Shown here piece after piece: positions 61,507 to 64,000 of a DNA stretch of 64,000 nt. The stretch's first letter is position 1; each line of letters begins with the position of its first letter. The position numbers and the translations under genes are program-made. Origin of the DNA: Paracoccaceae bacterium. GTDB taxonomy: Bacteria > Pseudomonadota > Alphaproteobacteria > Rhodobacterales > Rhodobacteraceae. The notes beneath the pieces are model-generated. The model was not told the DNA's origin. It searched no databases and worked only from the letters and a program-made list of their open reading frames with translations. The stretch is taken from assembly GCA_014654775.1 (NCBI GenBank), contig JACVZW010000071.1, positions 58,465 through 122,464 of the forward strand, given 5' to 3'.

Positions 61507-62028
61507 TCAACTTTGCCTGACGGCGCGATCAGGTCCGGTTGCAGGCGGGCGATGCAGATCGGCGATCAGCCCGGGCAAATCCTCGGCCCAACTGTCCCGC
61601 CCGGTCAGCAGCGACACCGAATGCCGCGCGCTGTCGGCATTCAGCACCTGCAGGCCGGACAGCACCTCCTGCAGCGGCCGCCGCGACAGCAGCACATGCG
61701 CCTGTGCCAGAACCAGCAACCGGTGATGCACCGCCTGCCGAAGCCCGGCCCAAGCCGGTGCATCGGTCAGCCGCGTATAGGCCCAAAAGCGGATGGGAAA
61801 GGGATCGAAATCGCCCTGCAGAGTCCGGCTCCAGCCCGAAAGCCCGCCACAAGGATCGGCCGGATCCTCCAGCGGCTCCACACTTTGGATCACCACTTCG
61901 GACAGGCCCCCGATCCGCGCTGTGGAGATCATCGTCGCCCCCCGGCGTCGCGGGCGCGACCAATCCAGCGCGACATGCGGCGCCAAAAGCGAGGCAGCCA
62001 AGGTCACTCGGTCAAGCATGCGCGACAT
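61507..62028 (-). CDS. Hypothetical protein
   Basis: ATG 62028 is preceded by GGAGGG 8 nt upstream and lies downstream of the nrdJ terminator. 173 aa, no family recognised. More A/T-ending codons than the core genes. Confidence 0.4.
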   Translation of the reverse strand: MSRMLDRVTLAASLLAPHVALDWSRPRRRGATMISTARIGGLSEVVIQSVEPLEDPADPCGGLSGWSRTLQGDFDPFPIRFWAYTRLTDAPAWAGLRQAVHHRLLVLAQAHVLLSRRPLQEVLSGLQVLNADSARHSVSLLTGRDSWAEDLPGLIADLHRPPATGPDRAVRQS

Positions 62029-62132
62029 CAGGTCCGCCCTCCGGTCGCGGATATTCAGATCTATAGCGCATCCCGTTGCGCGGCACAGGATGGCAAGGCG
62101 GATTGGTGGCAGACCAAGGGATGCCGGAACGG

Positions 62133-62166
62133 AAAAGGGCGGCACCGTCCCCAGTGCCGCCCCTTT
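62133..62166 (-). terminator. Rho-independent terminator (ancestral nrdJ terminator, now serving the inserted cassette)
   Basis: Minus strand has GGGCGGCAC-tggggacg-GTGCCGCCC followed by TTTTCC, 24 nt after the displaced nrdJ stop codon. Confidence 0.7.
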
Positions 62167-62189
62167 CAAATCCATCCGTGCCGGCTGCC

Positions 62190-62240
62190 TCAGCTGCACC
62201 CGCTCGTCGCGCCGCAGGTGTTGCACTTCATGCAGGTGCC
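62190..62240 (-). pseudogene. Displaced 3' fragment of nrdJ (last 16 codons plus stop)
   Basis: Reads [19 protein letters not shown], against the functional end [19 protein letters not shown] at 62795-62845. No upstream reading frame is attached. Confidence 0.8.
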
Positions 62241-62241
62241 A
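62197..62241. repeat. Direct repeat, left copy (nrdJ 3' end duplication)
   Basis: 45 bp matching 62802-62846 with 2 mismatches. 31 bp are perfect (62211-62241 = 62816-62846). Confidence 0.9.
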
Positions 62242-62246
62242 AATGA

Positions 62247-62795
62247 TTAACCTAGCGCCAGTTCCGCAACTCGCCGCTTGACGGCTTTTTCAGTCACGAA
62301 GAAGAGCTTCGCAAGAGCCGACTGATCACCGGCCAGCCGCGAGAAAGCCGGCCTGAACTGGTTAGCGGGCATGAGAAGGGCAGTGGCGAATTGGTTGGCT
62401 TCTGATTCCATTATTTGATCACTTGGTTCCAAGTAAATGAAGGGATCCGTTGCGCTTTGGCTGTCTCGGTTGATACGACCGTCAAAAATGTCGCGTCCGG
62501 CCAAATGTGCCTTGTGCAGGACAAAATGACCAAGCTCGTGGGCGACCGTGAAGTTCTGAACCTCCGCACGGTCCTGTTGGTTAAGCTTCACGACCCAGCC
62601 AGAAGGCGAGCCGTAGCTTGGCGCATTTTGAAGATAACCCCGTTCGTACGGAAGCAAATCCTCCACCAGAACTTTCAGACCAAACTCACGTGCCAAAGAG
62701 ACAATATCTCCCTCCAGCGTTGCGCAGAAGTTCCGAAGTTTGTCCCTCTCCCAGTCACTGATGCGACCGTCCGCCTTGAAGGAATAGTCGGCCAT
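62247..62795 (-). CDS. ImmA/IrrE family (Peptidase_M78, COG2856) zinc metallopeptidase
   Basis: [15 protein letters not shown]...; HEXXH in FTVAHELGHFVLH and the downstream ESEANQFATALLMP motif. The ATG overlaps the nrdJ TAA (TAATG). The N-terminal extension in the track ORF is the nrdJ overlap. Confidence 0.85.
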   Translation of the reverse strand: MADYSFKADGRISDWERDKLRNFCATLEGDIVSLAREFGLKVLVEDLLPYERGYLQNAPSYGSPSGWVVKLNQQDRAEVQNFTVAHELGHFVLHKAHLAGRDIFDGRINRDSQSATDPFIYLEPSDQIMESEANQFATALLMPANQFRPAFSRLAGDQSALAKLFFVTEKAVKRRVAELALG

Positions 62796-64000
62796 TACGA
62801 ACACCCGCTCGTGCCGCCGCAGGTGTTGCACTTCATGCAGGTGCCATTGCGCACCAGCGTGTAGTTGCCGCATTCACCACAGGGATCACCCTCATAGCCC
62901 TGCATCTTGGCCTTGGTCCGGGCATCCATGCTGACGGTCCCGGTGGCCAGCGCGGTGGATGTCGCCACTTCGGGCATCATCGCGCTGATCGCGGCCAAGC
63001 CATCCGTCCCGGTCGACAGCGCGGTCGCCCCCATGCCGCCCTGGAACACGACCAGTTCCTGCGGCAGGCGCTTCCTCAGATAGCCGGTCGACGATATCGA
63101 CTTCAGCAGTTCAACCGATTTCGACGCCGCCGACTCGCTCACTTCCCCGAAGTTGCGCTTGCCCTCGTCATCGCCACGGCCGAGGTCGTCAAAGGCCGCG
63201 CCGGTGGGCTTCACATGTGCAAGATCGGTGCGGTCGAGGTAGGAGATCGCCAGTTCGCGGAAGATGTAGTCAAGGATCGAGGTCGCGTTCTTGATCGAGT
63301 CGTTGCCCTGCACCATCCCCGCCGGTTCGAACCGCGTGAAGGTGAAGGCCTCCACGAACTCCTCCAGCGGCACGCCGTATTGCAGGCCCACCGACACCGC
63401 GATGGCGAAGTTGTTCATCATCGCACGGAAGCCAGCGCCTTCCTTATGCATGTCGATGAAGATCTCGCCCAGACGTCCGTCGCCATATTCCCCGGTGCGC
63501 AGATAGACCTTATGGCCCCCCACGATCGCCTTCTGGGTATAGCCTTTGCGACGCTCCGGCAGCTTTTCGCGATGGGTGCGGATGATCTCCTTCACCACGA
63601 TCTTCTCGACGATCTTCTCGGCCAGAACGGCAGCCTTTTCTTGCGCCGATCCGGTGGCGAGGATTTCCTCGGCCTCCTCGTCATCCTCGACCAGCGCGGC
63701 GGCGAGGGGCTGCGAGAGCTTCGATCCGTCCCGGTACAGGGCATTGGCCTTGATCCCCAGCGACCAAGACAGCTCATAAGCCGCCAGCGTTTCCGCGATC
63801 GTGGCCGAGTTGGGCATGTTGATCGTCTTGGAAATCGCGCCCGAGATGAAGGACTGCGCCGCCGCCATCATATGGATATGGCTTTCCACCGACAGGAACC
63901 GCTTGCCCTTCTTGCCGCAGGGATTGGCGCAGTCGAAGACCGGGTAATGCTCCGTCTTCAGGAAGGGCGCGCCTTCCAGCGTCATCGTCCCGCAGACATG
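62795..64000 (-). CDS. nrdJ: Class II (adenosylcobalamin-dependent) ribonucleotide reductase, C-terminal part (gene continues beyond the right edge)
   Basis: ...[15 protein letters not shown]..., [35 protein letters not shown] and the Cys-rich tail [31 protein letters not shown]. Confidence 0.95.
62802..62846. repeat. Direct repeat, right copy (inside the functional nrdJ 3' end)
   Basis: See the left copy at 62197-62241. Confidence 0.9.

Follow-up and report, generated by a model that had tools for sequence, protein, structure and literature searches.

A single-gene ImmA/IrrE-like peptidase cassette between two copies of the nrdJ 3' end in Rhodobacteraceae

The 3' end of nrdJ, the gene of class II ribonucleotide reductase, was studied in a 64,000-nt stretch of DNA from a Paracoccaceae bacterium (contig JACVZW010000071.1), called the window here. 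On the minus strand, nrdJ is followed by a 182-aa open reading frame (ORF) for a peptidase of the ImmA/IrrE type (Pfam family M78), named immA in the following, and then by a second copy of the nrdJ end (Table 1). Three parts make up the cassette: the last nrdJ codons, the M78 gene placed on the nrdJ stop, and a 3' flank of a few bases. Behind it comes the resident nrdJ tail, preserved as a non-coding copy that is connected to the native terminator. The upstream ORF was identified as nrdJ by its Pfam matches to Ribonuc_red_lgC, the ribonucleotide reductase barrel, and to the TSCPD domain, and its orthologues are full-length at 1218-1237 aa in L001-L003, L135, L141 and L144 (loci and protein entries are cited by working numbers). 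The nrdJ stop codon lies at 62795-62797, and its A at 62795 is also the first base of the immA start codon in the overlap TAATG.

A repeat search of the region returned a single 45-nt direct repeat, 62197-62241 and 62802-62846, with 2 mismatches, by far the longest and best repeat found. The displaced copy stays in the nrdJ frame up to its own TGA at 62190-62192, and both tails encode the same peptide end, (G/A)TSGCS. Their last codons differ synonymously, being TGT TCG TAA in the working nrdJ and TGC AGC TGA in the displaced copy. The first type was also found in the carrier L001 (TGT TCG TGA), while the ends of the displaced copy and of the relative Tabrizicola sp. TH137 read TGY AGC TGA, unlike the working tail of the window. 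The terminator hairpin behind the displaced tail is an inverted repeat with 14-nt arms that are 93% complementary. The G+C content is 0.51-0.54 within the immA ORF, 0.62-0.68 in the flanks and 0.658 in the whole window. Neither a recombinase gene nor flanking inverted repeats nor a helix-turn-helix (HTH) gene was present in or adjoining the interval, according to the gene table of the window and the repeat search. A read-through fusion of immA with the displaced tail was considered and rejected, as the two are in frame in the window and out of frame in L001 and L138, which makes the frame a coincidence.

Most of these features had been described in an earlier note made from the letters of the window alone. 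The ORF on the nrdJ stop with its HELGH motif and M78 signature was found where that note had placed it; the 45-bp repeat with an offset of 605 was reproduced by the repeat search; and the low G+C of the interval, as well as the absence of an integrase, of inverted repeats and of a partner repressor at the locus, was borne out. The second copy of the nrdJ end is also present, starting 5 nt past the ORF stop and not 6 nt as noted.

Table 1. Coordinates of the features at the nrdJ 3' end in the window.
Feature	Position	Strand	Remarks
nrdJ, 3' part (class II ribonucleotide reductase)	62795..64000	minus	Cut by the window end; Cys-rich tail
Upstream copy of the direct repeat, within the working nrdJ tail	62802..62846	minus	43/45 identical, spacing 605
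Left junction: cassette-type nrdJ end and TAATG overlap	62793..62815	minus	GGC ACG AGC GGG TGT TCG TAA
immA-like gene, 182 aa, ImmA/IrrE-type M78 zinc metallopeptidase (type A)	62247..62795	minus	G+C 0.539; G+C at third codon positions (GC3) 0.60
Right junction: spacer from the immA stop to the displaced tail	62242..62246	minus	TCATT, 5 nt
Displaced nrdJ 3' end (psi-tail): 45-nt repeat, last codons and TGA	62190..62241	minus	Encodes 16 aa
Native nrdJ 3' untranslated region (UTR) with intrinsic terminator	62126..62189	minus	Hairpin 62132-62167, then TTTTCC
Next host gene, 173-aa conserved hypothetical protein, outside the cassette	61507..62028	minus	Orthologue in TH137; no Pfam family

The immA protein contains HELGH and EANQFATALLMP. 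It matched PF06114 (Peptidase_M78, COG2856) over residues 37-176 with an E-value of 1.5e-18 and 67.3 bits against a cut-off of 22. The zinc-site residues H86, E87, H90, E130, A133 and N134 were invariant in 26 family sequences. The AlphaFold model, with a mean predicted local distance difference test score (pLDDT) of 86.8, gave as top matches in the PDB an XRE-type regulator of Mycobacterium tuberculosis (6cz6), IrrE (3dti), CapP (7t5t) and PprI with single-stranded DNA (8sln), with a probability of 1.0 and TMq values of 0.51-0.59. The profile search and the predicted fold thus upheld the ImmA/IrrE identity proposed from the sequence. Among defence-system profiles, the best match was PADLOC capP (E = 4.6e-21, profile positions 13-152 of 242), limited to the peptidase part of that profile.

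ImmA of the element ICEBs1, IrrE/PprI of Deinococcus and CapP of cyclic-oligonucleotide-based antiphage signalling systems (CBASS) are M78 peptidases that cleave a neighbouring XRE-type repressor after DNA damage. The protein of the window shares with them the Pfam M78 match, the HEXXH and E..EAN motifs and the predicted fold of IrrE, PprI and CapP, and it is presumably close in size to ICEBs1 ImmA. Unlike these proteins, it has no C-terminal GAF-like sensor domain, and the type A gene lacks an adjacent HTH/XRE partner: its neighbours are nrdJ upstream and the 173-aa protein and then FrhB downstream, and no HTH or XRE gene adjoins immA in any fetched locus. It would also differ from them in being tied in its expression to nrdJ and not to a repressor operon. 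A promoter scan returned one weak promoter-like match, which lies inside the immA ORF, and the scan of the nrdJ-immA junction found no terminator-like site there; the native terminator hairpin follows further on, behind the displaced tail. Since no obvious promoter of its own was found, immA is probably made from the nrdJ mRNA, and it may be translated by termination-reinitiation at TAATG. Concerning the translational coupling claimed in the earlier note, the stop-start overlap proved to be well conserved, as described below, and the coupling itself is read from sequence only. The product would be an active zinc peptidase of the ImmA/IrrE/CapP kind, with a level following nrdJ expression.

About 30 close homologues of the immA protein were found, with 60-75% identity and 181-186 aa, nearly all of them metagenomic. 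The surroundings could be read for 10 distinct members of this type A family, the window included, and in 9 of them the nrdJ stop overlaps the immA start as TGATG or TAATG (window, L001, L002, L003/4, L135, L136/7, L138/9, L141/2 and, from a gene table, P0025). In addition, three more homologues have called N-terminal extensions that correspond to the nrdJ tail read in another frame. The called N-terminus of P0026, an nrdJ tail out of frame, is also consistent with a TTC-type nrdJ end. The sole exception is L140 (3-1376 and 1468-2202), where immA is not preceded by nrdJ. A gene of the TniQ family (Pfam E = 5e-14) is found upstream together with AT-rich DNA; the peptidase gene has other sequence in place of its first codons, with a possible TTG start after GGAGGA, and a displaced tail is still found downstream. 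The arrangement resembles the result of a translocation, or of a transposon having inserted between nrdJ and the cassette.

In contrast to the fixed left side, the right side of the cassette is variable. A displaced nrdJ tail of 32-92 nt follows immA in 7 of the 10 readable members. Local alignment of each nrdJ tail with the DNA after the peptidase gene gave repeats of 32 nt in L001, 38 nt in L136/7, 45 nt in the window, 58 nt in L138/9 (perfect), 84 nt in L002 (one mismatch) and 92 nt in L003/4 (decayed and gapped). No displaced tail was detected in L141, where the alignment score was at shuffle level. The spacer from the immA stop to the repeat also varies, from 4 to 26 nt among carriers. 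The tail of L136 looks like the long copy of the L003 type with an internal deletion, and L140 and L002 carry related cassettes with part of the spacer in common (GCGAAAC) and different points of joining to the tail. Since its length (0-92 nt) and joining points differ between lineages, the repeat is not a fixed core of an attachment (att) site, contrary to the logic that had been proposed from the window by itself.

The genes past the cassette vary from genome to genome. L001 and L138 have the next gene in common and their intergenic DNA is unalignable, yet both retain near-perfect displaced tails, so that the displaced tail does not behave as ordinary neutral DNA. It must be kept by gene conversion, by renewal at transfer or by selection on the cassette lineage. 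It was also considered whether L135 has a foreign nrdJ tail brought by the cassette, and this was discarded, as L141 shows that the tail type belongs to a host clade not sampled by the 23-mer described below.

Pairwise nonsynonymous distances (dN) of immA ranged from 0.15 to 0.35 and synonymous distances (dS) were saturated in nearly all pairs, with dS of 0.5-1.1 in the adjacent nrdJ. By these estimates the gene is under purifying selection, functional and old. The distances of immA and nrdJ correlated (Mantel r = 0.70, p = 0.006). Because synonymous sites are saturated and immA distances track those of nrdJ, the family is regarded as old and not as a recent hop. One discordance was observed, namely that NrdJ of L136 groups with L001 and the window and its ImmA is nearest to L002. 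No near-identical cassettes were found in two different hosts among the roughly 30 homologues. Current mobility of the cassette, as implied in the earlier note, is not supported by these results. GC3 of immA remained foreign-looking, 0.51-0.62 against 0.78-0.86 in nrdJ, in every lineage. Dating transfers by comparing dS of immA and nrdJ was abandoned as uninformative, since codon bias keeps the nrdJ values low and those of immA have reached saturation.

The state of the site in relatives was determined by a scan of one genome per species with a 23-mer of the nrdJ tail, which gave at least 120 loci, those listed being all genuine nrdJ ends. None of the 120 species loci listed had a second nrdJ tail within its 8-kb stretch and no contig matched twice, in a check that would miss decayed tails. 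In the 104 listed loci with at least 700 nt downstream, there was no second tail within 3 kb and no close homologue of the type A peptidase. The nearest nrdJ relatives of the carriers, in Cypionkella, Pseudorhodobacter, Pararhodobacter, Gemmobacter and Paragemmobacter, have neither a type A cassette nor a second tail.

The closest relative found was Tabrizicola sp. TH137, with 95% aa identity in the FrhB-like neighbour and 90.6% nt identity in nrdJ. The flanks of both genomes match (EamA-nrdJ ... 173-aa gene-FrhB-DUF1289-RuvX), and homology resumes at window position 62170, at the terminator, the 3' UTR and terminator being orthologous. The cassette-free site would therefore consist of the displaced tail, 19 nt and the terminator. 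On the other side, the last 42 nt of the working tail of the window are identical to those of the carrier L001 and not to TH137 or the displaced copy, so the cassette brought at least the last nrdJ codons. The displaced tail runs on without a break into the native 3' UTR and its terminator, in agreement with the proposal of the earlier note that the element supplies its own nrdJ end and displaces the resident one. A strict empty site was not found in the species of the window, and the slot of TH137 holds another gene; window and TH137 are related by allelic replacement. The downstream DNA of the other cassette-free relatives was unalignable.

The other gene in TH137 showed that the view of a single cassette, as taken in the earlier note, was too narrow: the slot actually holds at least three divergent ImmA/IrrE-like cargo types, together with other small ORFs. 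The TH137 gene (type C) is a low-G+C ORF of 205 aa (G+C 0.52) that starts 9 nt after the nrdJ stop. Its protein has no Pfam match and carries the motifs NFILAHEAGH ... EEEEANLAA (HEXXH..EAN). About 20 proteins belong to the family, and UniRef names one of them IrrE N-terminal-like. Alignment of the catalytic core with the type A family by hhalign gave a probability of 94% (E = 1.4e-7), and the predicted structure (pLDDT 83.7) had CapP, PprI and IrrE as its best PDB matches. By alignment and model, type C is a remote ImmA/IrrE relative. A type C member in another genome (L145-L150) starts 10 nt after nrdJ and is followed by a 78-nt tail copy, 74/78 identical and reaching 9 nt past the stop, and then by the host 3' element. 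The displaced tails of L003 (type A) and L145 (type C) share a TGC-to-TTC change (GGCACCTTCATGAAG), either by chance or through common ancestry of the displaced tail across cargo genes.

Type B is an M78 peptidase (Pfam E = 9.5e-18) with only 30-35% identity to the window protein. Its gene occurs in three marine genera, 8-12 nt after nrdJ and with no duplication. The type B gene of Rhodobacteraceae bacterium HLUCCO18 (L006:5190-5720) is split by a frameshift, being either a pseudogene or a sequencing error of the metagenome-assembled genome (MAG). Two sequence-unrelated cargo genes, types A and C, thus each occur both with and without tail duplication. Small genes lacking a promoter recur in the nrdJ 3' flank, which is a general hot spot for them.

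The reading preferred for these data, with a probability of about 0.55, is an old family of promoterless single-gene cassettes at the nrdJ 3' end in Rhodobacteraceae, installed by host recombination and expressed from nrdJ. According to this proposal, RecA-type recombination of the host, and not a recombinase of its own, would install and exchange the cassette. The extremely conserved nrdJ 3' end, unchanged at the nucleotide level in at least 120 species, would anchor incoming DNA from a related bacterium, for instance via a gene transfer agent or transformation, and the far end would join illegitimately. A joint within the recipient tail would leave a duplication, and a joint past the stop would leave none. 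In later transfers, the displaced tail could pair with the recipient tail, acting as a portable right-hand arm, and the same repeats would permit precise cassette loss as well as gene conversion. The cassette would pass on mainly by vertical descent, and from time to time it would be exchanged or give way to another cassette of the same slot. A well-known trait of Rhodobacterales is their gene transfer agents, which deliver chromosomal fragments of about 4 kb for homologous integration. Such anchored recombination would explain why there is no recombinase, why the site is strict and why only hosts with the same tail are occupied, and also the duplicated and non-duplicated states of the same cargo and the lineage-specific boundaries. 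The mobile cassette of the earlier note is, in this sense, plausible and unproven.

Several points weigh against this proposal. Direct evidence of transfer is lacking, no near-identical cassette having been found in two hosts, and the correlation of immA with nrdJ distances is what vertical descent would give. The signal of a recombination tract is weak: about the last 20-42 nt of the window nrdJ are of carrier type, only about the last 20 nt of them clearly so, and the hint of a mosaic in nrdJ among L001, L122 and the window concerns few sites. Some tail boundaries look derived by deletion (L136 from L003, L140 from L002) and not by separate insertions. A right-hand arm of 32-92 nt is short for efficient RecA recombination. 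In addition, expression, coupling and protease activity are all deduced from the nucleotide and protein sequences.

Most of the data can be explained by one old insertion and subsequent vertical descent, with loss and gene conversion. In this alternative, one ancient illegitimate insertion took place in an ancestor of freshwater Rhodobacteraceae and was then only inherited vertically and repeatedly lost via the repeats, while gene conversion kept the displaced tail similar and the tail eroded from its edges, without any movement from cell to cell. The distance correlation, the saturated synonymous sites of an old family and the lack of near-identical copies in different hosts are in its favor, the tail boundaries of L136 and L140 could have come from internal deletions in a longer copy, and the decayed tail of L003 and its absence in L141 fit erosion. 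It is nevertheless considered somewhat unlikely, for four observations are difficult to reconcile with it. TH137 has the same flanks and a different peptidase gene, which requires at least one replacement or gain since it split from the window. The unrelated type C cargo comes with a tail duplication of its own, whose boundary is different, which means at least two origins of the structure. L136 has its nrdJ nearest to L001 and the window but its ImmA nearest to L002. Finally, GC3 of immA has not moved closer to that of the host in any of the lineages, although dS is saturated.

A second alternative takes the nrdJ tail as the attachment site of a tyrosine or serine recombinase encoded elsewhere, either by a larger integrative element that left a cis-mobilisable remnant or by the host, as with integron cassettes and Xer-dependent elements. 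In that case the 0.6-kb unit would be cut out as a circle and integrate again. Direct repeats around one promoterless ORF together with a restored gene end are what is classically expected of elements targeting the 3' ends of genes, two different cargo genes use the same target, and the units of about 0.6-0.7 kb resemble integron cassettes. Against these similarities, gene tables show no recombinase gene in or adjoining any examined locus (type A carriers, TH137 and the type C genome), and repeat lengths and boundaries differ by lineage (0, 32, 38, 45, 58, 78, 84 and 92 nt), unlike a fixed core. Neither an inverted-repeat core nor an attC-like structure was found. An integron cassette was rejected, with no attC-like inverted repeat at the cassette end and no integrase in the gene tables, and so was an Xer-type element, with no dif-like features found. 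No larger element was seen at the site, no second tail occurring within the 8-kb stretch of any of the 120 listed species loci.

The search for a vector gave no support to this alternative either, as phage, plasmid and viral collections held no close relatives. The cassette had no DNA match in phage or viral contigs, plasmid databases returned only short matches to the conserved nrdJ tail, and all protein relatives of immA in phages and plasmids were below 40% identity. With no DNA match past the nrdJ tail and protein relatives this distant, a phage or plasmid was rejected as the immediate source. A metagenome scan with exact 8-residue patterns of the ImmA protein recovered only distant M78 genes and, like the scan of viral contigs, was uninformative on context. 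A recombinase acting in trans remains a rival of the preferred reading, though a quite improbable one. An artefact, in which mis-joined reads of another organism produced the duplicated tail and the low-G+C ORF, is hardly credible: the window comes from a MAG and several related contigs have their break point at the tail or close to it (L135, L148, L068), but the same junctions recur in independent assemblies from at least 7 other samples and with different assemblers, which excludes this objection of the earlier note, both junctions lie within contigs that are 30-930 kb long, and the ORF is intact and under purifying selection.

The proposed anchored recombination has close parallels in known systems. 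C-terminal displacement and orphan modules were reportedly described by Jackson in 2009 for toxin loci of the group formed by Rhs, CdiA and type VI secretion (T6SS). In those loci, as proposed for nrdJ, the incoming module brings its own copy of the 3' end of a conserved gene, recombination occurs in the conserved part, the resident end is pushed downstream and survives as a homologous fragment, and no dedicated recombinase takes part. Displacement by an anchor and an illegitimate joint was proposed for Vibrio T6SS effector clusters (Kirchberger 2017, PMC5361080), and the same scheme for orphan modules of Rhs and contact-dependent inhibition (CDI) systems (Poole 2011, PMC3150448). Unlike these cases, the target here is the gene of a housekeeping enzyme and not of a toxin, the two tails encode the same peptide so that nothing is diversified, the cargo is a peptidase instead of a toxin tip with its immunity gene, and the unit is only 0.6 kb and apparently translationally coupled.

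The minimal mobile elements of Neisseria, in which cassettes are swapped by transformation and homologous recombination between conserved flanking genes, are similar in having different genes between conserved flanks (here window versus TH137, and types A, B and C) and in lacking mobility genes and transposon-type terminal repeats. They differ in that the downstream flank of the nrdJ cassette is not conserved across hosts, and in that many nrdJ cassettes carry the end of the upstream gene as a possible right-hand arm, a feature undescribed there. Integrative elements in the 3' end of conserved genes, their remnants without a recombinase (CIMEs) and integron cassettes are comparable as regards the direct repeats of the target-gene end that flank the insert, the restoration of the gene by the insert and a single promoterless ORF that would be expressed from an outside promoter. 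They are unlike the nrdJ cassette, which has no integrase nearby, a variable repeat length, no attC-like structure and no parent element found to use the nrdJ site. The class of mechanism is therefore known from toxin loci and minimal mobile elements, and the target gene, the cargo and their recurrent pairing are new; the searched literature held no link of ImmA with nrdJ, nor of COG2856 with an nrdJ-tail arrangement.

The fold occurs on one and the same housekeeping gene in three diverged lineages, which argues that a coupling to NrdJ itself, or to the expression of its gene, matters. All three ImmA/IrrE-like lineages lost or never had a partner, and each is wired to the gene of the B12-dependent ribonucleotide reductase, that is, to the supply of deoxynucleoside triphosphates (dNTPs). 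The repeated pairing suggests an unrecognised link of ImmA/IrrE-like proteases with nucleotide supply. The immA peptidase probably cleaves an unlinked regulator, in a way that would be tied to replication or dNTP stress, a conjectural link already drawn in the earlier note. An action on the variable linker or the Cys-rich tail of NrdJ is less likely and speculative.

As for genome evolution, the preferred reading would carry C-terminal displacement beyond toxin loci to a housekeeping gene that is essential. With its strong conservation, such a gene end could anchor the entry and swapping of tiny cassettes without a recombinase, a point that bears on the gene flow brought about by gene transfer agents in Rhodobacterales. 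A bolder view, held only tentatively and rated as unlikely, regards the nrdJ 3' end as a docking site for recombinase-less cassettes whose recurrent ImmA/IrrE-like orphan cargo is functionally tied to ribonucleotide reductase. The proteases might then cut the variable linker or redox tail of NrdJ, or a phage or defence regulator upon disturbed nucleotide supply or replication. If true, this would amount to a new dNTP-linked switch of stress or immunity and a recombinase-free cassette platform on a housekeeping gene.

Some further observations concern nrdJ and its surroundings. The segment of NrdJ from the TSCPD domain to the Cys-rich tail (window 62900-63060) is a hypervariable linker rich in Ala, Gly and Thr, with indels between close relatives, and its DNA contains an imperfect internal repeat of 31 nt (62926-62956 and 62995-63025, 77%). 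Downstream, the 173-aa gene (61507-62028) sits between the nrdJ terminator and the FrhB-like gene, and its TH137 orthologue has equal length and equal position (L144:5403-5924). The exact 23-nt motif of the nrdJ tail also occurs in MAGs labelled Terriglobia and Chloroflexia and likewise in Rhizomicrobium, Acetobacteraceae and Rhodospirillales (L017 and L024; also L011, L025, L076 and L085). Its spread reflects extreme nucleotide conservation, transfer of nrdJ or contamination of bins.

Other small ORFs, several of low G+C, begin 5-11 nt after the nrdJ stop in L023, L053, L088, L114, L124, L048, L015 and L118, and fall between the stop and the conserved 3' element. They include a 62-aa protein starting with MAKNTG, found in two genera, and others of 71, 89, 98 and 146 aa. 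The element itself, about 95 nt long and followed by a terminator, is conserved downstream of nrdJ in 46 of the 120 listed Rhodobacterales species (L005-L124) and absent from the window. It has the form GGGGCGGG-TGCG-CTCGCCCC, then GACGCGGATCAGGCC GCAGGC ... CGGGCGGT ... GAGCCTGATCAGCGAAACTG (for example L026:2159-2308, minus strand). No Rfam match was obtained at the gathering threshold or at E ≤ 1. Compensatory changes were observed in 17 of 20 predicted pairs, and the element may be an undescribed structured RNA or a small RNA derived from the 3' UTR.

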